The position numbers and the translations under genes were made by a program. Positions 27,794 to 38,870 of a DNA stretch of 64,000 bases are shown piece after piece (positions within the stretch are counted from its first letter, which is position 1; each line of letters begins with the position of its first letter). The notes beneath the pieces are model-generated. The model made no database searches. It saw only the letters and a program-made list of their open reading frames with translations, and was not told the DNA's origin. The stretch comes from a virus: the IMG/VR virus record IMGVR_UViG_3300032334_000315, positions 64,001-128,000 of that record; one strand, 5' to 3'.

Positions 27794-28756
27794 ATGATTC
27801 GTTTGATCGTAATGCTCTTTATTGGCTTCATCTCGCTTGCGGCTGCGGCGGCTGAGCTAAAAATAATCACTCCATCCAATGACGATAGCTATAATATCAA
27901 CGCCAGGATTCTATCCAGGCATCTCGGTAAATACTTACCAGACAATCCTACTATAACTATCCAATCCATGCCAGGCGCTGCGAGCTTAGTTGCAGCCAAT
28001 TACATATACAATATTGCGCCGAGAGATGGTAGCGTTATCGGCATTGTCTATAAAGAGATTCCGTTTGTCGGGCTATTAGGCGGTGACGGAGTCCAGTTTG
28101 ATCCTAATCATTTCAACTGGATTGGGTCGGTAGCAGACGGCCGCAAGGATGCTGTTATTCTATGGGCCAATGAACCGAAGTTTCGGTCAGACTTCGTTGT
28201 AGGTGCTGAGGGTGCCACATCAGGCAACATGGCTTTGTTTGTCAACAAAATGCTTGGCACCAATTTCAAGATTGTCGGTGGTTATCCAACGACCGGTGCT
28301 AACCGTCTCGCGCTTGAGCGCAAGGAAGTGGATGCGGTTATCTATAGTTTGATTGGTATCAAAACGCAAAAGCCCAACTGGTTACAGTCAGGCAGCGGCA
28401 TCTATCCAACGCTTCAGTTTGGCAACGGTACGGCCCGTCTACCAGAATATAAAGAAGTTCCAGCACTGGCTGAATATGTAACAGACGACAAAGACAGAAA
28501 GCTCCTTCATGCTTTTGAATCCCAGTTCATAATGTTGCGCCCATTCGTAGCACCGCCTGGCGTGCCAAAAGCTCGCATAGATGAACTACGCAATGCGTTC
28601 TCAAAAGCAATGGTGGATGCTGAGTATGTTGAAGATGCGCGCCGTGCAAACATAGATATTAATGCTATCAGCGGTGCTGATATGGAAACCATGATAAAGA
28701 CTCCAGTAAATATCGAAACGCTCGATAGTCTCAAACAGATTTATAAGGTAAAGTGA
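27794..28756 (+). CDS. Bug/TctC-family tripartite tricarboxylate transporter substrate-binding protein
   Basis: Signal peptide; ARILSRHLGKYLPDNPTITIQSMPGAAS..AANYIYNIAPRDG, FNWIGS, GYP...LALERKEVD, RPFVAPPGVP. Confidence 0.88.
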   Translation: MIRLIVMLFIGFISLAAAAAELKIITPSNDDSYNINARILSRHLGKYLPDNPTITIQSMPGAASLVAANYIYNIAPRDGSVIGIVYKEIPFVGLLGGDGVQFDPNHFNWIGSVADGRKDAVILWANEPKFRSDFVVGAEGATSGNMALFVNKMLGTNFKIVGGYPTTGANRLALERKEVDAVIYSLIGIKTQKPNWLQSGSGIYPTLQFGNGTARLPEYKEVPALAEYVTDDKDRKLLHAFESQFIMLRPFVAPPGVPKARIDELRNAFSKAMVDAEYVEDARRANIDINAISGADMETMIKTPVNIETLDSLKQIYKVK

Positions 28757-28757
28757 A

Positions 28758-29438
28758 ATGTTCGAACATGCTCTATTTCCTACACTGTTAACCGAATTTG
28801 AATATCCAGAAAAAGATGCGTTCAAAAATGCTTTTTACCAGGGCATCTTCAAGTATATGTCACCCGAAGGATACTCAAGCGAGTTCACTGGCCATGTGAA
28901 TATCCACCATGAACCATCGTTTGAGCCATTCTTCAAGTTTGCTTCAGATTGCGTCAAGCAATATATCGCAAGACTTCACTTGGATCCAAACCTGTTTGAG
29001 TACAATGTGGTCAAAACATGGATGAACATTACTAAAAATCGTATGACACCTATGCACAATCATGCGGACGCGCACATGTCATTTACCTACTACATTAACA
29101 TTCCAAAAGAGTTCTCAAAGCCTATTCGTTTCTTCAACTACAATATGAGACATGAACCGTTCCCAGGTTGTATCAAGTTTAATGATCCATCAAAATGGGA
29201 CGACTTCAATGCATACACATGGCAGATTGAACCACAAGAAGGCAGACTGTTTGTTTTCCCAGCAAATTTGACGCATGACACCGTAGGCCATGAAGAAGAG
29301 AAAGAACCAGGATGCTTCACTCCAGACGATCTGGATCAGATGCGCGTCTGTCTTGCGTGTGATATTCTTCTAACATATAAAAATAAAGCAGCGAAACCAT
29401 TGGGTGTCCAACCTGTGAGTAACTGGAGAATTTTCTGA
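28758..29438 (+). CDS. putative 2OG-Fe(II) oxygenase (TIGR02466-like)
   Basis: LFPT start, WMN, HNHADAHMSFTYY, PQEGRLFVFPANLTH, R.CLACD. Confidence 0.8.
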   Translation: MFEHALFPTLLTEFEYPEKDAFKNAFYQGIFKYMSPEGYSSEFTGHVNIHHEPSFEPFFKFASDCVKQYIARLHLDPNLFEYNVVKTWMNITKNRMTPMHNHADAHMSFTYYINIPKEFSKPIRFFNYNMRHEPFPGCIKFNDPSKWDDFNAYTWQIEPQEGRLFVFPANLTHDTVGHEEEKEPGCFTPDDLDQMRVCLACDILLTYKNKAAKPLGVQPVSNWRIF

Positions 29439-30058
29439 TGGCAAAGTATACAACAATTTATAATGATCCATACCGTCGCGCTAAGATTACTTTGCCGTTT
29501 GCATTTTGGGATGGAGCATTCTCAGACGAAGAACTAAAAGCGGTTATTGAGTATTGCGATTCATTCGGTGTCGAACAGAGTACGCTTACTGGCACCACAG
29601 ACATTGAAGAAATTAAAAAGTACCGCGAATCAAAGATTAAGTTTCATGAGCGTAATCAGGACAACGGCTGGATCTTTGACAAACTAAACTTCATCATTCA
29701 GTCTATCAACGAGATGTATTATGGCTTTGATTTGAATGGATATAATGTGTTCCAGTATACCACATATGACGCTGAAGACGAAGGCCGATATGATTGGCAC
29801 ATGGATATGGCAATGGGCCATGAGCAACCTGGTGTGGCTGAAATTCGCAAGCTATCACTCACTCTCCTATTGGACGATGAGTTTGAGGGTGGTGAGTTCC
29901 AGATCAATGGTAGCAATGCACATGAACCTATCATTGCAGAATTGAAAAAAGGACGGGCTATTTTGTTCCCGTCCTTTATGATTCACCGTGTTACGCCAGT
30001 CACAAAAGGCAAGAGGCGATCAATCGTTGTCTGGGTAGTAGGACCAAAGTTCCAGTAA
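29438..30058 (+). CDS. 2OG-Fe(II) oxygenase (prolyl-4-hydroxylase/PKHD-like)
   Basis: QYTTY, YDWHMD, RKLSLTLLL, FEGGEF, FPSFMIHRVTPVTKGKRRSIVVW. Confidence 0.92.
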   Translation: MAKYTTIYNDPYRRAKITLPFAFWDGAFSDEELKAVIEYCDSFGVEQSTLTGTTDIEEIKKYRESKIKFHERNQDNGWIFDKLNFIIQSINEMYYGFDLNGYNVFQYTTYDAEDEGRYDWHMDMAMGHEQPGVAEIRKLSLTLLLDDEFEGGEFQINGSNAHEPIIAELKKGRAILFPSFMIHRVTPVTKGKRRSIVVWVVGPKFQ

Positions 30059-30970
30059 CTACTTCAACACAATGTCTTTTTCATACTTATCGACAATTTT
30101 ATTTATTTTATCAATTTCTTGTTGAATTTTTTCTCGTTCAAAACATCTGAGTTCATGACCAATCTTCTCAAGTAGTTTTATAAAATCAGTCGATCCACAT
30201 ATTTTTGGCAAAAAAATATCAAACGTCTTTACAAATTCAACTCTTTCTTTCGGTACAGAAAATCCGACAGTTGATACAAAATTAAAATCTGGAACACCAA
30301 CATGTTTTCCATTAGGAATATTTGATGCTTCTAAACTAGATGATAAGATTGGTCTCAAGCCTATGATGTCTTGTGGCGAAAATATTGTATAGTCAGCTTC
30401 GTTTACCAATATGCTTTTTGTTATTTCATATGGTGATGTGTAATTTAAATCTTTAGATTTAAAGCCAATCGACTTTAATAAAACAACATTAAGATACGGT
30501 GTTATTGCATTTGTTGTTGTATTCCCAAAGTATACAGTTTTTCCTGAGCTAAAAAGATTTTTTAAATCATTAAACGATTTGATATTTGATTTCGGGTTAA
30601 CGGCAAGATGAAAAGGTGTTCCAGAAAAAGATTGTACTTGAACAACATCACTATTTCGATTATAGGCATTTATATTTGGGCTGGTATATCTACCTAAAGT
30701 GACACCGGATATACCAGACCAAATCAGAACGTCTTCGCCGGCTCTGGCCGCAGATATAGCTCTAAGGGTAGCATTATCTCCACCAGCTCCTGGTATTGAA
30801 GTAAGCCGAAATTGAACATCATTCTGAATAATATTGAGTTGAGATATTACTTCTGTCCCTACAAGCATTCCAACACTGCCTGGGGTAAACATCGAGTAAA
30901 CATTTACTTCTTTTGCCATAGCACAATTTGACAATAGTAAAAAAAATAATGCAAACATTTTATTAAACAT
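30059..30970 (-). CDS. divergent Bug/TctC-like secreted solute-binding protein
   Basis: Signal peptide ending AMA; FTPGS, IPGAGG and LAVNPKSNIKSFNDL motifs; paralogue of 33859..34791. Confidence 0.65.
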   Translation of the reverse strand: MFNKMFALFFLLLSNCAMAKEVNVYSMFTPGSVGMLVGTEVISQLNIIQNDVQFRLTSIPGAGGDNATLRAISAARAGEDVLIWSGISGVTLGRYTSPNINAYNRNSDVVQVQSFSGTPFHLAVNPKSNIKSFNDLKNLFSSGKTVYFGNTTTNAITPYLNVVLLKSIGFKSKDLNYTSPYEITKSILVNEADYTIFSPQDIIGLRPILSSSLEASNIPNGKHVGVPDFNFVSTVGFSVPKERVEFVKTFDIFLPKICGSTDFIKLLEKIGHELRCFEREKIQQEIDKINKIVDKYEKDIVLK

Positions 30971-30982
30971 AATAAAATTTCC

Positions 30983-32185
30983 TTAAAATTCTGGCTTAAA
31001 TTGTCCGAGATAATAAAGTCTAGAAAATAGAGTCTTATTCAAGTTTGATTTGTTTGCTATTTTATCATATTTTTTCCATTTGTGCGATTGATAATCAGCA
31101 TAAAAATCATGCGCCGTATGAGATATACCAATAGTTTCTACCAACTTTATATCGGGACTTATTTTTGTTGGTTTAGAGCCAACAAAAATATTTGGATCCC
31201 AATCCGGATAAATGATTGTATTATACCATCTATCTAAAATAAAACCTGGTGGACATTTTATTTTTGGATCAGACAATGCGTTTTTTACCACATTTCGTAT
31301 GTACATCCACTCATTATATAATTTTTTACTTTTTGCCAATTTATCAATAATTACTTGACACTGTTTTACCGGTATCATTGGAAAATCTGGTGACCAGTAA
31401 AAATCTTCGACTGTATATGGAGCACCTTCTTTTTGAAGAGATACTCCGATATTTGCGAGAGTGATATCGGAAAACAAAAAGAAAATTTTACCATCGTCGG
31501 TAATGTCAATAATGGGTTTTTCGAGGCCTCTGATAACAGCTACATTTTCTTTTGTTATAGACTGTCTTTCGTGTTTAATTAAAAGTGGTGACCAATTTTT
31601 TCCTACACCTCCTGTAACCCATCTAAGTGACCTAGGTTCATCGTTATGACCAAGATACTCATATTTTTTTCCACCTATTTGCGTGATTAAATTTTCCGAC
31701 GAATCAATCAATGTAATTTTAGTGTTTGGACTATATTTTTTAATTTTATTTAACTGTGGTATAACGGCCATCTCAAATTCCATAAACTCGGTGAGATCCT
31801 CGTCATTAAGCAATATGCTACGATCCAATCTATTAATCGCTCTCTGGTGATGAACAATAACGATCTCATCTAAAAAAATATTATTTTTAAGAAAAGTTTC
31901 CAAAACTTGTGTTGAATCGCTACCTCCGGAATATCTTAAAATTAGATATCGGTATTTATCACGCAACTGTTGGGCGCGATCTCTATACAGGACCGATATG
32001 TCAAGGTGTATGGTTTTTTCCCAGTTGATGTTTGAAAAAATATGGTCGTTGTAATAGAATTGAATCTTACCGCCATAATCTTTCTTTAATAGCATAAGAT
32101 CCAATGCATCTTCTCGCATTACAAAAGTTTGGTTATCATAAACATAATAACCCAGGTGTGGGTACTTTATATCAAAAGTTAACAT
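30983..32185 (-). CDS. PP-loop (adenine nucleotide alpha-hydrolase-like) enzyme
   Basis: YRDRAQQLRDKYRYLILRYSGGSDSTQVL..F..NNIFLDEI; RGLEKP; EDFYWSPD. Confidence 0.75.
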   Translation of the reverse strand: MLTFDIKYPHLGYYVYDNQTFVMREDALDLMLLKKDYGGKIQFYYNDHIFSNINWEKTIHLDISVLYRDRAQQLRDKYRYLILRYSGGSDSTQVLETFLKNNIFLDEIVIVHHQRAINRLDRSILLNDEDLTEFMEFEMAVIPQLNKIKKYSPNTKITLIDSSENLITQIGGKKYEYLGHNDEPRSLRWVTGGVGKNWSPLLIKHERQSITKENVAVIRGLEKPIIDITDDGKIFFLFSDITLANIGVSLQKEGAPYTVEDFYWSPDFPMIPVKQCQVIIDKLAKSKKLYNEWMYIRNVVKNALSDPKIKCPPGFILDRWYNTIIYPDWDPNIFVGSKPTKISPDIKLVETIGISHTAHDFYADYQSHKWKKYDKIANKSNLNKTLFSRLYYLGQFKPEF

Positions 32186-32620
32186 TTATTTGTTTTCATA
32201 AAATGGATACAGCTCGCCTGTCTTTCTATTGCGGTATGAATAGTAAAATTGAAAATTTACGTCTCTTAAATTTGACTTTGGATTCAAATCTAGCATTTTC
32301 TGTTTGATATCAACAATCGCTGTATTGTAAGCTCTTGCTAGAGCGATATTTGAAAAGTAATATTCAATAATCAATGTGGTGTCATCTTCTGTATATCTGC
32401 GCGTCCAACCTTCAAATCCTTCAAATAGTTCTGGAGCCATTTGATCTCTAAGATTCTTCGTTGCTCTAAAATGAGCGGTATTTTTTATAGTGACGTTATC
32501 TCTAACATCAAACAAAACATCGACAGCCTTTGGTGAATTGATAGGAACATAGATGTCCGCCCAATTACCGCCCTCAGATTTGACAGTGATTATACTGAAT
32601 ATGATTGGTGCGTCGGTCAT
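32186..32620 (-). CDS. hypothetical protein (144 aa, start MTDAP)
   Basis: GAGGAG SD 6 nt upstream of ATG 32620; first gene of the leftward cassette. Confidence 0.6.
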   Translation of the reverse strand: MTDAPIIFSIITVKSEGGNWADIYVPINSPKAVDVLFDVRDNVTIKNTAHFRATKNLRDQMAPELFEGFEGWTRRYTEDDTTLIIEYYFSNIALARAYNTAIVDIKQKMLDLNPKSNLRDVNFQFYYSYRNRKTGELYPFYENK

Positions 32621-32646
32621 AAAATTCTCCTCGTTTGATTCTGGTC

Positions 32647-32661
32647 TATTTAGCATATATA
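32647..32661. promoter_or_regulatory. divergent late-type promoter pair (CTAAATA on minus; TATATA on plus)
   Basis: TATTTAG at 32647-53; TATATA at 32656-61 lies 5 nt before the ATG at 32667. Confidence 0.5.
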
Positions 32662-32666
32662 AACAT

Positions 32667-33857
32667 ATGAAATTGCATAATGGATATTACACCTATAACG
32701 GAAAAATGTTTTTTGCTCGTGAGGACGCATTTGATGCGATGCTATTGAATAATGATCTCAGCGGTCAAATTTTATTCAATTACAATGATCCTATCTTCGC
32801 GAACATCAATTGGACTAAAGATCCAAAGATAAACATTTCTAGTCTATATCGTATGCGCGCTCAACAAATCCGAGATAAGTATAAGTATGTCATACTTTCG
32901 TTTTCTGGTGGTAGCGATTCAACTCAAGTTCTTCAAACTTTTTTGAATAATGACATATTCATAGACGAAATCCAAGTATCAACTTTGGACAAAATGACGC
33001 ACCGATTTAATAAACAAGAATTGGCTAAAGATCGAGATTTGGGATATATCATGGAATACGAGTATGCTGTAAAACCTATGTTAAAGATCGTCAAAGAAAA
33101 ATCACCAGATACCAAAATTACGATTCATGATGCTTCTGATTATCTACACGATCAGTTGTCTGAGAAGAAATTTTTTCCATTAGGAAATGATGCACGAACG
33201 AGAGTCGGTTCTCCTAGAATGTCACCTGGTGTAGGTCCATCATTCATATGGTGGTATATGTACAATACAATTAATTCAGATAAGTCAACAGACAGAGATG
33301 GTGTATGTATTGTTAGAGGCTTTGAAAAACCGTCAATTATGATTGACGATGACAACAAGATGTATTTTCATTTCTATGACCATACTATGATTTCAACGGC
33401 CGCAATCAATAAAGGTGAAGTTGTTGAAAATTATACCACTGAAGATTTTTTTTGGTCTCCAGATATGCCTTTTATTCCGGTCAAACAGTGTCATATGATT
33501 CTGAATAAGTTCAGAAGTGACAAAAAATTTCTAAACAAATATAAAGATGGATTGAAAGCTATCGACGAATTTGCTAAATTAAATTACAAACCTGTGTATT
33601 CGCCAGCAATTCATATCGAACGAATGTTGTGTGAGATTATATATCCAAATTGGAATCCTAATACGTTTGTGGCACCTAAGCCAACAAACATAAGTCCAGA
33701 GTTCAAGATATATGAGCTGGCTGTTGGAAAACACTTCGGTAATGATTTCAAAAAAGAAATCCAAAACTATAAAGAATCCAAATATGACGCAATATTAGAC
33801 AAAAGACAATTTTATAGAATGATTCCATCGAAAAAATATTATGTAGGAGACATATAG
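32667..33857 (+). CDS. PP-loop (adenine nucleotide alpha-hydrolase-like) enzyme (start MKLHNG)
   Basis: YRMRAQQIRDKYKYVILSFSGGSDSTQVL; RGFEKP; EDFFWSPD; aligns along its length with 30983..32185. Confidence 0.75.
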   Translation: MKLHNGYYTYNGKMFFAREDAFDAMLLNNDLSGQILFNYNDPIFANINWTKDPKINISSLYRMRAQQIRDKYKYVILSFSGGSDSTQVLQTFLNNDIFIDEIQVSTLDKMTHRFNKQELAKDRDLGYIMEYEYAVKPMLKIVKEKSPDTKITIHDASDYLHDQLSEKKFFPLGNDARTRVGSPRMSPGVGPSFIWWYMYNTINSDKSTDRDGVCIVRGFEKPSIMIDDDNKMYFHFYDHTMISTAAINKGEVVENYTTEDFFWSPDMPFIPVKQCHMILNKFRSDKKFLNKYKDGLKAIDEFAKLNYKPVYSPAIHIERMLCEIIYPNWNPNTFVAPKPTNISPEFKIYELAVGKHFGNDFKKEIQNYKESKYDAILDKRQFYRMIPSKKYYVGDI

Positions 33858-33858
33858 A

Positions 33859-34791
33859 ATGTGGATGCGAATTTTATCTTTCTTGCTCGGCACGTCATTT
33901 ATGATAACCAGTGCGTTTGCTTTGGAAGAGCGAGTCAATATTTACACCAGATTTGCAGCTGGTGACAACACTATCATTATGGTTAACATGATGATTAAGC
34001 AGTTGAATAAGAAATATGAAGGTGTTTACGATTTTAGGGTCAACATTATTCCTGGATCAGGTGGAGAATCTGCCGACCAGAGAGCTATATTGGATGCCAA
34101 TGCAGGAATAAACACACTTGTCGTAGGCAGCATTTCAAATTTTGCTATCAATCCAATTGTCTACGATTCAAAAATCAATCGCGATATCGAATTTATTCCA
34201 GTTGAGTTGGCCCATAGATTACCAAACGCAATCATGGTAAATCCAGACTTAAATATCAATACGGTCGACGATCTGGTAAAGCATATTAGAAACAAGAATA
34301 AAGCTTACAGCGGAAACACTCTGCAAGCAACTTCTCCGATTCTGTTAGACTCAATATTCAGAACTCATTATGGATTGAATAATGTTGAGAGTGTAAAATA
34401 TAAAGCACCACCTGAAGTTGCGAAGAGCGTTCTTATTAATGAAGTCGATTATTCAATTTTAAATCCCATCGACACCACAGGGTTAAAGCTTTTAGCAATT
34501 TCGTTTCCTCAAAGAGATGCTTATTTTCCAAATATTCCTACGGGAATTGAATCTGGCATGCCAGATTTTAATTATGCTTCAAGCATGATGTTCTATGTGC
34601 CAAAAGCAAGTCTGAAATTTGTCGCTACTATCAGACAGGAACTCCATCAAGCATGCCTTGATAGCTATGGTATTGATATGGTAAAAACTCTTAAAATTAC
34701 ACCAATATGCAATAACGATGAGACATTTCTTTGGAAAGAAATTACTAGAGAAAGATTGCTAGCCCTAAAACATAAAGACTCACTCAAATAA
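33859..34791 (+). CDS. divergent Bug/TctC-like secreted solute-binding protein
   Basis: Signal peptide ending AFA; FAAGD, IPGSGG, INTVDDLV and R..YFPNIPT..ESG.PDF Bug-like motifs. Confidence 0.7.
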   Translation: MWMRILSFLLGTSFMITSAFALEERVNIYTRFAAGDNTIIMVNMMIKQLNKKYEGVYDFRVNIIPGSGGESADQRAILDANAGINTLVVGSISNFAINPIVYDSKINRDIEFIPVELAHRLPNAIMVNPDLNINTVDDLVKHIRNKNKAYSGNTLQATSPILLDSIFRTHYGLNNVESVKYKAPPEVAKSVLINEVDYSILNPIDTTGLKLLAISFPQRDAYFPNIPTGIESGMPDFNYASSMMFYVPKASLKFVATIRQELHQACLDSYGIDMVKTLKITPICNNDETFLWKEITRERLLALKHKDSLK

Positions 34792-35580
34792 TGCTAAAAA
34801 CTGTTCTTTGGTACCAAAAGTGTGATTAGGATCAGGCGTATGTACTCTATGCTGCCTGATACGGACAAATACTAGATCATATCCTGATCCATAATCATAC
34901 GAGAATTTTGGTCTCCATGGAATGTTATAGATCCTTGATTTGAAATCTTGAACCGTTTCATTACCCATTTCTTTTACCATAGCACAACACAGTTCTGGCG
35001 TGTATGTGAAAAAGTAATGGGTATTATCATTGTGAATTAAAACGTCATTGTAGAAATCCCACTCATTAGCACCAACATACATTTGTCCATCATTGTCGTC
35101 AATGATGTGTTCGCTCATAATCATAATCCCGCCATGATCTTCTGCGTATCTACCGACTATAAGGCCTGGTACAGAATTGTGACCATATCCACTTAATTTT
35201 TTAAATATGTCATCAACAAAGATCGTCAATAGTTCAGACGGTGTTTTGTCGATAACTATAGGATCTATTCCGTACTCCTTGCAAGTACGAAAAGCATAAG
35301 CCGATTCATATTTGTTTATTGGCGTATTGACAATAACGGGAATTACGTTATGATCGCGTTCGACCATACGTCTAAACACGAACTCTGAATCCATACCGCC
35401 ACTAAAACCAATAAACAACTTTTCTGATTTATCAGCAATTAAATCGGCAGTGTAATCTGTAGCTGCATCAAAAGACATTATATTGTATGGCTTTGTATTC
35501 AGATGCACAGAAAAATTTGTCGAATTGTTTATTAATCTTTTGGATAGATTACTTCGAAGCCAATTGTTTTCCGTTGCCAT
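34780..35580 (-). CDS. PP-loop enzyme (shorter subfamily)
   Basis: LFIGFSGGMDSEFV motif. Confidence 0.7.
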   Translation of the reverse strand: MATENNWLRSNLSKRLINNSTNFSVHLNTKPYNIMSFDAATDYTADLIADKSEKLFIGFSGGMDSEFVFRRMVERDHNVIPVIVNTPINKYESAYAFRTCKEYGIDPIVIDKTPSELLTIFVDDIFKKLSGYGHNSVPGLIVGRYAEDHGGIMIMSEHIIDDNDGQMYVGANEWDFYNDVLIHNDNTHYFFTYTPELCCAMVKEMGNETVQDFKSRIYNIPWRPKFSYDYGSGYDLVFVRIRQHRVHTPDPNHTFGTKEQFLALFE

Positions 35581-36016
35581 CTAAGCCTTTCCATGTACCA
35601 AATATCAAGTCCCAAATGGGAATGAACACGCCATAATTTTTGGTGGCATAATCATGGTGAATGAGATGCCACTTGCCACTGGTTAGGAATGGATAGAGAT
35701 TGATGCGCTTGTTATGTTCGACCGCCTCTTGGATAAAGCCAGCCCAAATGTAGTACGCAACTAAAAGCCACCAATGACCAGTGATTGCAGATATTATAAT
35801 CGTTGGAATCACTTCTGTCAACCACTGATCTATGGTGCTATTCCAGGTATCGAAAAAAAGAAATGCGTTTTTCCAGTTTAGACCTTGGATTGTTTGGTCT
35901 GTTACCTGCGCGTGATGATCCATGTGAAATTTACGGACAATCGGAATCACATGGGCCGCACGATGCGCCCAATAGACGACAAAAGTCCATAAAAGAAACA
36001 CAAGGAAGTAGCTCAT
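35549..36016 (-). CDS. fatty acid hydroxylase/sterol desaturase family membrane protein
   Basis: His boxes YWAHRAAH, FHMDHH, EHN and WHLIHH; NYG...WDLIFGT; hydrophobic segments; ATGA-coupled start at 36016. Confidence 0.85.
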   Translation of the reverse strand: MSYFLVFLLWTFVVYWAHRAAHVIPIVRKFHMDHHAQVTDQTIQGLNWKNAFLFFDTWNSTIDQWLTEVIPTIIISAITGHWWLLVAYYIWAGFIQEAVEHNKRINLYPFLTSGKWHLIHHDYATKNYGVFIPIWDLIFGTWKGLDGNGKQLASK

Positions 36017-37068
36017 TTTAGATAGTATGGTTGCGAAAAGAAGCAATGCTTTCTATTTATCGCTGTATGCTTTGATATAGTTCTCATGCCTTCCAGCGTC
36101 ATTCTATACATAGCACTATCGGTTTTTGATAGCATGAACATATCTCTGGCGCTGAGCGAGCTATACATGGATTTGGTCGATTCAAATTGAAGTGGTGTTC
36201 TGAGGTTATATATGATGCTATTCATCCGTTTCATGCGGTCCATATATGCGACTTCTCTTTGCCAACCATGAGGTAATGTTTTACCCTGCATTATCATATC
36301 AACAAAAAGCGTTTCAAACCTCATGACAACGTGGGCCTGCTTTACCATGATCTTTATTACGATGTCATCTGTACCGTTGTAGAAATTGATGCGCTTGAAG
36401 TTTTCATCTTCATAGTTTGCACCATAGTCATTGACGGATAGATCATTAAATCGGACGCAGTTATCGAGGGCTTCATATCCTGGCTTGTCGGAACCCATAA
36501 TATAGCATGTCTTTTTGTTATTGTCTTTGCCAATAAACTTCTTCAGGTCATACCAGAATAGATTATGAACGCTTTTAAATGCACCGATATGATCGGTCCA
36601 TTCATTACCATATTTTTTAATGAGTGTGAAATTGTTTGGATCGGTAAAGTGTTCGGTATAGTCAGATACCGTAATCTTTGTGTTCGGTAGATGCATACCG
36701 TTTAGAGTCGGAAACGCATTGAGATATATGTCGCCGTTATGATTTTCGTCGGTGCCTTTTTGTTTATCTTGAGAGAATGCGCCGACTAAAAGTATCTCGT
36801 CTATCAAAATATTATTGTAGTAGAATGTTTCCAATATGTTGGTAGAGTCGTAGCCTCCAGAATAGCATAGGATCACGTGGTCATATTGATCGCGAATCTG
36901 CTGTGCGCGTTCGCGATACAATACATCTAGAGTTTCAGTTGGCTCTGTTTTCCAATCGACTTTTTTAAAAACGTCATCGTAAAAATAAAAAGAACAATGT
37001 CTGTTTGAAGCAACAGCCGCAGCGTGTGTTGGATAGACATTTCTATCCTCATCATAATAAAACATCAT
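36013..37068 (-). CDS. PP-loop enzyme
   Basis: WKTEP..L..LYRERAQQIRDQYDHVILCYSGGYDSTNIL..F..NNILIDEI; GSDKP. Confidence 0.75.
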   Translation of the reverse strand: MMFYYDEDRNVYPTHAAAVASNRHCSFYFYDDVFKKVDWKTEPTETLDVLYRERAQQIRDQYDHVILCYSGGYDSTNILETFYYNNILIDEILLVGAFSQDKQKGTDENHNGDIYLNAFPTLNGMHLPNTKITVSDYTEHFTDPNNFTLIKKYGNEWTDHIGAFKSVHNLFWYDLKKFIGKDNNKKTCYIMGSDKPGYEALDNCVRFNDLSVNDYGANYEDENFKRINFYNGTDDIVIKIMVKQAHVVMRFETLFVDMIMQGKTLPHGWQREVAYMDRMKRMNSIIYNLRTPLQFESTKSMYSSLSARDMFMLSKTDSAMYRMTLEGMRTISKHTAINRKHCFFSQPYYLK

Positions 37069-37077
37069 TGAATGTGT

Positions 37078-37509
37078 TTACCCTGCTGTTTTGTTGGTAA
37101 AATTATCCTTTGATAGCGAATCAATCAAACTCTTAATATCATCATCTGTTAGAACATCGGCCTTCTTAGCAAGAAGTTCATCAGTATTTTTAATAACGGT
37201 TTTACCAAGCATTGCTTTTACATTTGTTAAAGATGTATCTATATCTGGATTATTTACAGCTTCCATTTTACGAAGCCATGCCATTGGTGCGTTCATAAGG
37301 ATAAAATCTTCAAGCACTTGCCCTTCTAGTGGTGGAATTGGCATGTCTAAAGATACATCCGTGCGGCAGCGCATAGGAGTACTGTCTGGGCGACGATTAA
37401 CATCGTTTGCCACTTTTAGCATTTCTTCGGTTATTTTATCAGTTGTATATCTGACAACAAACAAATGGTCATCAGGCCATACTTCAATGATTCTGTAATG
37501 AATGTTCAT
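37078..37509 (-). CDS. hypothetical protein, possible adhesin chaperone
   Basis: 143 aa, ATGA-coupled to the adhesin gene. Confidence 0.55.
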   Translation of the reverse strand: MNIHYRIIEVWPDDHLFVVRYTTDKITEEMLKVANDVNRRPDSTPMRCRTDVSLDMPIPPLEGQVLEDFILMNAPMAWLRKMEAVNNPDIDTSLTNVKAMLGKTVIKNTDELLAKKADVLTDDDIKSLIDSLSKDNFTNKTAG

Positions 37510-38870
37510 CCTACTGGTCCCGTTCTAGTTCCTGTGTTAATCCAACTTGTCACATATGCATTACCAGTTACGGCATTTCCTTGCGAACCTGTAGCACCAG
37601 TCGCACCTGTGGCTCCTGTGTCTCCAACTGCGCCTGTGGCTCCTGTGTTTCCTGGTGTTCCTGTTCCTCCAACATTTCCTACAGCACCAGCATTACCTGC
37701 AGGCCCATAACCACCTGCACCGCCGCCACCTTGAACGACACCCCAACCGCCTGGTGAACCATAAGGAGGATTATAACTTGCAGCACCACCAGCTCCTATA
37801 TTACCGCCGGGTCCGCCTGATGCGTAACCAGACCAACCAATAGTACCACCACCGCCACCACCATTAGCACCACCACCACCGCCAGCGTTTCCTGAAGTCA
37901 CGCCAGGATAATAGCCTCCGCCACCTCCTCCACCATAACTACCACCACCGCCGCCGCCTCCACCGGCACCGTCCGGATCGGCCTTAGCGTTATAAGCATA
38001 ACCACCTCCGCCTCCTCCACCACCGCCTCCGGTAGCTGCTCCACCACCATTGCCCGGTGAACCTCCAGCGCCCCCAGGTGCACCAGCGCCACCGGGCCCA
38101 CCTGGGCCTCCTGGTCCGCCAGGGCCACCGACTCCGCCGGGCCCTCCTGTTCCACCGGCACCGCCGATAAATGATGTTGTGTTTTCAATAACCGTTATTA
38201 GACCAGTAACGGAGTCAACCTGAAATGCGATACCGCCGGTACCACCAGCGTTACCAGTCACACCAGTGCCGCCTGTATTTCCTTTGCCGCCTGCGTTGCC
38301 TTGCCCACCACCATTACCGGGTGAGCCGTTATTTCCCGGTGCACCGTTATTACCTGGATTAGCAGGTGAACCGCCGCCGCCTCCATTACCAGATACTTGC
38401 CAATAAGCAGGCGAGTTATAACCAGCGGGCACACCCTTAGATGCAGGATAATAACCTGTAGCAGGAAAATAAATTGGTGATCCTGCACCGCCACCACCAC
38501 CGACACCATTTGAACCTGGATTACCTGGTGTCCCAGTATTACCTGGTGTGCCTGGGTTTCCCGCAAGGCCTGTAGTGCCGGAGTTTCCTGTAGTGCCTGG
38601 ATTACCTGTAGCACCTTGATTACCAGAAGTGCCTGTGCCGCCTGTGATGGTAGAAGTATTCTTCACATACACAAACGAACCAGCTTTCCAACCAGTTCCA
38701 GTCTTAAATGCTGGTGTGTTAGGTGATGATGATCCGATGTTATTATTGATAAAGCATAGCAAGTTCAACGGATATGTAGGTGCAGCCGATGTGTTATATA
38801 GGTCTACGTTATTCGTAGAGCTATCAATACTAACAACCTTAGTTGGTCTTGCCATTAAAAATGTGAACAT
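37506..38870 (-). CDS. gp38-like polyglycine adhesin with collagen-like G-X-Y arms
   Basis: NTSTITGGTG, ENTTSFIGGAGG and C-terminal GNAVTGN...WINTGTRTG resemble T-even gp38; long GNPG/GTPG/GATG triplet runs. Confidence 0.65.
   Translation of the reverse strand: MFTFLMARPTKVVSIDSSTNNVDLYNTSAAPTYPLNLLCFINNNIGSSSPNTPAFKTGTGWKAGSFVYVKNTSTITGGTGTSGNQGATGNPGTTGNSGTTGLAGNPGTPGNTGTPGNPGSNGVGGGGGAGSPIYFPATGYYPASKGVPAGYNSPAYWQVSGNGGGGGSPANPGNNGAPGNNGSPGNGGGQGNAGGKGNTGGTGVTGNAGGTGGIAFQVDSVTGLITVIENTTSFIGGAGGTGGPGGVGGPGGPGGPGGPGGAGAPGGAGGSPGNGGGAATGGGGGGGGGGYAYNAKADPDGAGGGGGGGGSYGGGGGGGYYPGVTSGNAGGGGGANGGGGGGTIGWSGYASGGPGGNIGAGGAASYNPPYGSPGGWGVVQGGGGAGGYGPAGNAGAVGNVGGTGTPGNTGATGAVGDTGATGATGATGSQGNAVTGNAYVTSWINTGTRTGPVG

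Follow-up and report, generated by a model that had tools for sequence, protein, structure and literature searches.

Two pairs of genes, each coding for a PP-loop ATP-pyrophosphatase (PP) and an exported solute-binding protein of the TctC/Bug family, diverge from each other in the phage of IMG/VR record IMGVR_UViG_3300032334_000315, which is 154.7 kb long and estimated to be 93% complete. We analyzed a window of 64,000 nucleotides (nt) corresponding to bases 64001-128000 of this record, in which cassette A (TctC_A and PP_A) and cassette B (PP_B and TctC_B) occupy positions 30059 to 34791, and found that the enzyme and binding-protein genes form a real unit. What is shown directly is how the genes are arranged, their homology, their conserved adjacency and co-variation, the purifying selection on them, the fold class, the signal peptides and, in a few loci, a link to TctA/TctB permease genes. 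As for the role of the module, we tentatively favor a scheme in which an organic acid is captured in the periplasm, imported, and adenylated or amidated in the cytoplasm. The class of ligand, the chemistry and the direction in which the compound moves are inferred, and we give this scheme a substantial chance, although somewhat short of an even one. The mirror-image region is composed as follows.

30059..30970, minus strand: TctC_A, exported TctC/Bug-family solute-binding protein of 303 amino acids (aa); cassette A, 34% identity to TctC_B
30983..32185, minus strand: PP_A, orphan PP-loop ATP-pyrophosphatase of 400 aa; cassette A, SGGSDS, 43% identity to PP_B
32186..32620, minus strand: orf144, small protein of 144 aa encoded upstream of PP_A; predicted dimeric alpha/beta-barrel (ABM/IsdG-like) fold
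32621..32666, no strand: divergent intergenic gap of 46 nt, read from the sequence
32667..33857, plus strand: PP_B, orphan PP-loop ATP-pyrophosphatase of 396 aa; cassette B, ATG start at 32667
33859..34791, plus strand: TctC_B, exported TctC/Bug-family solute-binding protein of 310 aa; cassette B, Pfam TctC

The map of open reading frames (ORFs) gives the order TctC(-), PP-loop(-), ORF(-), 46-nt gap, PP-loop(+), TctC(+), as in the preliminary description of this DNA, with two starts refined. The start of orf144 is most likely at 32620, with GAGGAG ahead of it as ribosome-binding site, and this leaves exactly the 46-nt gap. The genes are tightly packed: orf144 abuts PP_A, PP_A and TctC_A are 12 nt apart, TctC_B starts 1 nt past the stop of PP_B, and the ends of TctC_B and of the next gene, PP_C, overlap. 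The exact T4 late-promoter TATAAATA is absent from the 46-nt gap, and scans of the region for promoters and terminators, including sigma-70-like sites, showed no enrichment. The likeness between the cassettes that had been noticed earlier was also found again. PP_A and PP_B align end to end (43% identity, E 4e-104) with all the motifs quoted at the time visible, TctC_A and TctC_B share IPGxGG and Y..P.E..KS.L.NE.DY (34% identity over 276 residues, E 1e-37), and all 20 sequences in an alignment of the phage TctC clade have the same C-terminal Cys pair (Cys258/Cys276 of TctC_A). At the DNA level, the inverted repeat between the cassettes is only a 98-nt stretch of 70%, coding-level similarity.

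We looked at the surroundings of 80 distinct PP genes for which the viral contig offered at least 1 kb of flanking sequence. TctC adjoins PP in 52 of the 80, TctC or DctP adjoins it in 60, and one or the other is found within two genes in 69, with a median same-strand gap of -1 nt between PP and receptor. The gene order varies (PP before TctC in 38 cases, TctC before PP in 16) and adjacency is kept in both. Even in distant phages, jumbo phages included, where PP identity is 27-33%, a TctC gene still adjoins PP, and after it there is often a gene for a binding protein of the DctP type, the type of the tripartite ATP-independent periplasmic (TRAP) transporters. Moreover, the similarity matrices of PP and TctC co-vary (Mantel rho 0.73, 0 of 999 permutations), of which linkage alone predicts some. 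In the T4-like island that holds the cassettes, PP similarity tracks the adjacent TctC (rho 0.57) above any other island gene (-0.08 to 0.36). The preliminary description had taken the enzyme and binding-protein genes for a unit, and this is supported by adjacency kept in distant phages, by genes that mostly overlap or abut, and by co-varying matrices. Two pairs per genome recur at the loci L012, L015, L037, L043, L056 and L067. When seven genomes with two pairs each were compared, seven quartets were informative, and in every one of them the PP paralogues paired with the corresponding TctC paralogues, with no mismatch; none of these quartets involves the window's own pairs. As a separate observation, DctP/TRAP-family proteins (cluster c2; Pfam 1.8e-47; L031:10192-11151 and 29 other loci) come after PP-TctC in many distant phages.

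The two copies had been explained by duplication of the pair as a unit, followed by diversification. The pair is indeed a unit, considering its adjacency and co-variation, while a local duplication that then drifted is not supported. Several results stand against local divergence. First, the distances between PP_A and PP_B and between TctC_A and TctC_B are about the same as those to alleles in other phages, as for deep paralogues. The closest relatives, L005 and L006, have a single pair, whose members are the orthologues of PP_B and TctC_B. The weak sisters of PP_A and TctC_A are in the second pair of L015, the one proximal to the oxygenase gene Oxy2. Second, L005 and L006 stay collinear with the window as far as 30054 and rejoin it at 32349, so that cassette A is missing exactly. 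Third, the ratio of nonsynonymous to synonymous substitution rates (dN/dS) between close phages is 0.03-0.09 for PP and TctC, indicating strong purifying selection. Finally, both cassettes are compositionally foreign, with a GC content at third codon positions (GC3) of 0.22-0.34 versus 0.43-0.48 in the flanks (TctC_A has GC 0.327 and GC3 0.217).

The comparison with close phages also revealed how the cassettes are replaced. Between the window and L006, the neck genes and TctC_C are 92-97% identical, PP_C and the hydroxylase gene 87-92%, PP_B 48% and TctC_B 51% (PP_B is likewise 48% identical to the PP of L005), and the replaced block also takes in orf144 and partly Oxy2. Similarly, between L012 and L015 the second pair drops to 42% (PP) and 38% (TctC), with flanks at 64-89%. 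The low dN/dS together with this swap pattern suggests that the divergence goes back to old alleles that were exchanged and did not arise by rapid change in place. The simplest reading of the sequences is that whole cassettes, as old alleles, would have been swapped by recombination, and that this phage would hold two of them in opposite orientation.

We then consider the two partners separately, beginning with the receptors. TctC_B matched Pfam PF03401 at 44.4 bits (cut-off 27, E 2e-11), and its PDB sequence matches are the terephthalate-binding protein (TBP), AdpC-like 5oei, BugE, Bug27 and BugD. TctC_A alone is below the PF03401 threshold; the clade profile A3, with TctC_A as first row, matched 11 solved Bug/TctC proteins, the best being BugE 2dvz over its full length (1.1e-17). 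By profile and by solved members, the phage proteins belong to the PF03401 family, and their PDB relatives bind di- or monocarboxylates. TctC_A and TctC_B have N-terminal hydrophobicity scores of 2.12 and 2.10, and the N-terminus of TctC_C, a further binding protein of the island, is hydrophobic too, as are those of 72 of 76 PP-linked TctC proteins and 13 of 13 TctC_C-type proteins, signal peptides being called here by a hydropathy heuristic and not by a trained predictor. By the same heuristic, only 2 of 118 PP proteins have a hydrophobic N-terminus. Hydrophobic N-termini and the invariant Cys pair fit export of the TctC proteins to the periplasm. The nearest cellular Bug proteins, from Comamonadaceae, show only 24-27% identity to phage TctC, and the phage proteins are therefore not recent host captures. 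TctC_C falls into a conserved clade of its own, and the L006 copy is 97% identical to it.

On the enzyme side, S79, G80, G81 and D83 of the SGGSDS loop are invariant in 33 homologues, as are about 20 further positions. PP_A and PP_B have no Pfam or NCBIfam match at E <= 0.1. When PP_B, PP_C and the PP profile were compared with PDB sequences, nothing meaningful came up, and the profile retrieved no AsnB relative; tblastn of PP_B, TctC_B and PP_D against 50,697 GenBank phage records gave no match. In PHROGs, only a marginal PAPS-reductase match was obtained for PP_B (0.0055). The family is nonetheless large, with 1,763 representative clusters (50% identity) at E <= 1e-3, of which 897 reach 1e-30, and it is present on more than 509 viral contigs. 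Its clusters are almost all viral or metagenomic, and the Atlas neighbors of PP_B are viral hypothetical clusters. Among 185,579 prokaryote genomes we found only 7 PP loci, all in metagenome-assembled genomes and several of them phage-like; the context of the Bacteriovoracaceae locus was uninformative. The parts of the module belong to known superfamilies, while the PP family itself is unmodelled and virus-specific.

The AlphaFold2 (AF2) model of PP_B (pLDDT, the predicted local distance difference test score, 88.7) has as best structural matches AsnB (1ct9_A, Z 11.3, root-mean-square deviation 5.0 over 284 residues) and 9b6c_A (Z 11.3), followed by beta-lactam synthetase (1jgt_A, Z 9.8) and carbapenam synthetase (1q15_A, Z 8.6), and also TsnB9. 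More than 30 different PP-loop enzymes match the model at Z 5-11, generic ones at about 7.5, and Foldseek against the PDB returned the same enzyme class with weak E-values. The SGGxDS loop in the sequence and the HUP-class alpha/beta fold in the model place these proteins in the PP-loop superfamily, and the predicted model shows the AsnB-type synthetase-domain architecture, a PP-loop core with a helical C-terminal subdomain. PP thus has the SGGxDS loop in common with the AsnB, beta-lactam and carbapenam synthetases (class II amidotransferases, N-type ATP pyrophosphatases), and nearly the whole model superposes on their synthetase domain. Unlike them, it has no N-terminal nucleophile (Ntn) glutaminase domain with a catalytic Cys: there is no GATase match, the PP-loop starts at residue 79 of about 396, with about 55 residues ahead of the ATP-binding core, the model aligns only from AsnB residue 137 onward, and identity in the structural alignments is 6-10%. 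The Asn_synthase profile was matched neither in Pfam and NCBIfam nor in the PDB profile search. Neither their sequence nor their domain architecture makes the PP proteins members of the AsnB family. On the basis of the model, PP_A and PP_B are treated here as probably acting in the manner of amide synthetases that adenylate a carboxylate.

Natural fusions of a PP_C-type and a PP_A/B-type protein (P0012 and P0092, 677-688 aa) suggest that the two types of PP-loop enzyme act together. P0012 (677 aa) had been a candidate for a PP-TctC fusion and was rejected, as it is one of these PP_C+PP_A/B fusions. We also noticed a fifth PP paralogue (380 aa) in the same genome outside the window (locus L003, G000:C1:7445-11365). 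Its neighbors are an outer-membrane beta-barrel of the 8-strand type (Pfam OMP_b-brl 8.8e-10), a radical SAM/SPASM enzyme and SpeD (AdoMet decarboxylase), and no binding-protein gene adjoins it.

How the two partners could work together is suggested by the loci with permease genes, which are 3 of the 80. L038 reads TctC-PP-orf-TctB (2.8e-10)-TctA (2.4e-156), L070 reads PP-DctP-TctA-like (6e-34), and in L071, part of a 317-kb phage record with a terminase, PP is followed by a TctA-like gene (4e-29). Signalling, substrate capture and a sponge had all been proposed as functions; capture gains support from the TctA/TctB genes beside PP at these loci, while a cytoplasmic sponge misfits exported proteins. 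It can be added that L038 (7117-13392, TctC-PP-orf203-TctB-TctA) continues with a B12-binding radical SAM enzyme and has a second TctA-like gene at 808-2142.

TctC and DctP receptors both recognize carboxylates, and AsnB, beta-lactam and carbapenam synthetases adenylate a carboxylate and form an amide or a lactam. As the receptor carries a signal peptide and the enzyme does not, a small molecule crossing the inner membrane is the most economical link between them, and the combination of carboxylate-recognizing receptors with AsnB-type carboxylate-adenylating enzymes leads us to favor a process in which an organic acid is captured, imported and then adenylated or amidated. In this scheme, the receptor, exported to the host periplasm, would bind an organic acid and pass it to a tripartite tricarboxylate (TctAB) permease, which would be the host's here and the phage's own in a few related phages. 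In the cytoplasm, the PP-loop enzyme would adenylate the carboxylate of the imported compound, which could then be converted to an amide or other acyl derivative with free ammonia or an amine. The neighboring oxygenases and further PP-loop paralogues may tailor the compound, and two alleles would mean two ligand specificities. The outer-membrane beta-barrel encoded beside the fifth PP paralogue is consistent with envelope remodelling for uptake.

The phage is a T4-like myovirus, with gp13, gp14 and gp15 (neck), sheath and terminase genes just upstream of the island and a 2,173-aa fiber gene downstream of it. The cassettes thus lie in an accessory island between neck and fiber genes, a position named "host recognition cluster" in marine T4-like phages by Zaragoza-Solas et al. 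(PMC7029224). Around the cassettes, the window contains the following genes.

27794-28756, plus strand: TctC_C, Pfam match
28758-29438 and 29438-30058, plus strand: Oxy1 and Oxy2, two 2-oxoglutarate (2OG)-Fe(II) oxygenases, Pfam matches
34780-35580, minus strand: PP_C, PP-loop present
35549-36046, minus strand: fatty-acid-hydroxylase-like membrane protein, Pfam FA_hydroxylase E 4e-16
36013-37068, minus strand: PP_D, matches PP_B at E 2e-20
37078-37509, minus strand: orf143, island context gene

The synteny of the island extends to about 15 T4-like loci, with orf143, PP_D, the hydroxylase, PP_C, sometimes orf144, then PP, TctC and an inverted Oxy2-Oxy1-TctC_C block. Homologues of orf144 are found upstream of PP in L005, L006, L007, L013, L021, L022, L025 and L029. 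The AF2 model of orf144 has a pLDDT of 77, and its top ~40 VIA matches are mostly ABM/dimeric ferredoxin-like at moderate Z (5.6 to 7.5), while Atlas gave no lead for this protein.

Some other features of the island and of related loci deserve mention. Oxy2 (29438-30058) is a 2OG oxygenase of the prolyl-4-hydroxylase type (PF13640), and about 7 kb from it, at 37506-38870 of the window, is encoded a Gly-rich protein of 454 aa with Pro-rich, collagen-like G-X-Y runs, suggesting that hydroxylation of a fiber is possible. Many length variants (joints) of this collagen-like gene were seen within 37600-37970 in metagenome contigs. In distant phages, proteins of cluster c24 (9 members; L037:1387-2121), of about 245 aa, with an HxD...H pattern and no Pfam match, possibly a cupin or 2OG oxygenase, recur beside PP, TctC or DctP. 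The gene of cluster c6 (19 loci; L031:3219-3851), whose product of about 185 aa has a conserved CSWR..AGG....GDYIDWYCSG motif, is directly upstream of PP in many of them.

The stretch is present in freshwater metagenomes of several studies. Its layout is reproduced on a 20.8-kb contig of another metagenome (L098) with 98-100% aa identity, and a single contig of 8,606 bp, from a freshwater run of a different study, covers 28397-37002 with 196 differences, which rules out an assembly artefact as the source of this layout. Among GenBank phages, positions 29000-36000 had no megablast match. The window contains no tRNAs, and the genome no psbA. In run X3, another sample of the source study, no contig of at least 90% identity was found over 32416-34420, where mixed strains are possible. 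In the same run, pieces over PP_A (30751-32225 of the window) were >99% identical with flanks at 90-95%, pointing to either a recent cassette transfer or a strain mixture. Protein P0029 is 48% identical to PP_A, perhaps alongside a 99% PP_B; its contig was not found among the viral and metagenome contigs.

Several points weigh against capture and amidation of an organic acid. The phage clade does not conserve the loop with which Bug proteins clamp the carboxylate (GG-S/T-D after strand 1). The fold match of PP shows no function, and PDB sequence and profile searches gave no sequence-level link to any characterized enzyme. Moreover, 0 of 30 PP-linked DctP-type proteins have a signal peptide, which is unusual for the DctP family and misfits periplasmic capture. 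TctA and TctB are absent from the 154.7-kb phage, which does not encode a TctABC system (TctA and TctB with the receptor); a compatible permease of the host is assumed, and permease genes occur in just 3 of the 80 loci. Finally, the module lies in the tail-fiber/host-recognition region and is swapped between close phages, a pattern also typical of arms-race genes.

The same parts could also be read in the opposite direction, as the synthase/receptor pairs of the preliminary description: the PP-loop enzyme and the oxygenases would make a small molecule that exits, and the cognate TctC would bind it, either for siderophore-like re-uptake or for signalling through a host sensor. The neighborhood does look like a tailoring cluster, with four PP-loop paralogues, two 2OG oxygenases, the fatty-acid-hydroxylase-like protein and the ABM-like orf144, and PP and TctC co-vary. 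In addition, TctC-type proteins can signal to sensor kinases, as established for BctC/BctE (reviewed in PMC5812351). However, no exporter or sensor gene is conserved beside the pair, the membrane genes, where present, are the importer subunits TctA and TctB, and it seems costly to secrete a product and recapture it from dilute fresh water within a lytic cycle; we consider this explanation unlikely.

Slightly less likely again is a modification of proteins or peptides, in which the AsnB-like enzyme would be a lasso-peptide cyclase or an amidotransferase acting on TctC, a tail fiber or a peptide, the two genes encoding a cognate enzyme-substrate pair. The 1:1 translational coupling and co-replacement of the pair would agree with this proposal, as would the location of the island between neck and fiber genes and the presence of radical SAM/SPASM or B12-radical SAM genes beside PP paralogues in this genome, L038 and L094. 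On the contrary, neither fusions nor docking support it, the only fusions being PP_C+PP_A/B, and orf144 and the oxygenase neighbors point to small-molecule chemistry. PP also pairs with the unrelated DctP, which a shared ligand class explains better than a shared protein substrate.

Envelope defense or superinfection exclusion is improbable in our opinion. Here the TctC-like protein would block a permease used by rival phages, or PP would amidate an envelope precursor, and the alleles would result from an arms race. The module lies in a hypervariable host-recognition region, its composition is foreign, and cassette identity is 48-51% between phages whose flanks are 87-97% identical. Nevertheless, the genes are under purifying selection with no sign of positive selection between close relatives, and defense leaves unexplained both the coupling of enzyme and receptor and the whole TctAB permeases of some phages. 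Least probable of all, and already disfavored, is that the genes have no functional link and are neighbors only through a shared recombination hot spot gathering accessory genes: the block replaced relative to L006 does reach beyond the pair, and co-variation of linked genes arises by inheritance alone, but adjacency is kept down to 27-30% PP identity in unrelated backbones including jumbo phages, in both gene orders and with overlapping stops and starts, and PP similarity tracks TctC above any other linked gene.

Compared with known systems, the phage receptors share with the Bug/TctC receptors of tripartite tricarboxylate transporters (TTT; BugD, BugE, Bug27, AdpC, TBP) a full-length profile match, the PGxGG loop, a signal peptide and a size of about 300 aa, and their genes are "orphan", without adjacent TctAB, as in Bordetella and Comamonadaceae. 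They differ in being phage-encoded, in their 24-27% identity, in the clade-specific Cys pair, in the loss of the first clamp loop and in the coupling to a PP-loop gene. Phage TctC can also be likened to cyanophage PstS, a phage-supplied exported receptor presumed to serve the host permease. PstS, however, was copied recently from a host, its ligand is known and no enzyme is coupled to it, whereas phage TctC has long been viral, exists in multiple alleles and has a dedicated enzyme as its partner in the cytoplasm. In the literature we found no phage TctC/PP-loop module described, only tctA domains in SUP05 phages and the pelagimyophage host-recognition cluster.

In conclusion, it is possible, although we advance this with more reserve than the capture scheme itself, that these cassettes represent an undescribed auxiliary module of many uncultured phages, T4-like as well as jumbo, in which AsnB-like enzymes matched 1:1 to viral TctC or DctP receptors would re-tool the TTT/TRAP transporters of the host so that particular organic acids are imported and chemically committed, with interchangeable alleles setting the ligand specificity. 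If so, phages would keep their own ancient and diversified receptor-enzyme cassettes, beyond copying transporter parts of the host, and this would add a new layer of viral control over the uptake of dissolved organic acids in fresh waters. These data also give a first structural and contextual handle on a large "dark matter" family of viral proteins (1,763 clusters). Moreover, the paired architecture offers an experimental route, as ligands co-purifying with the receptors should point to the substrates of the enzymes.

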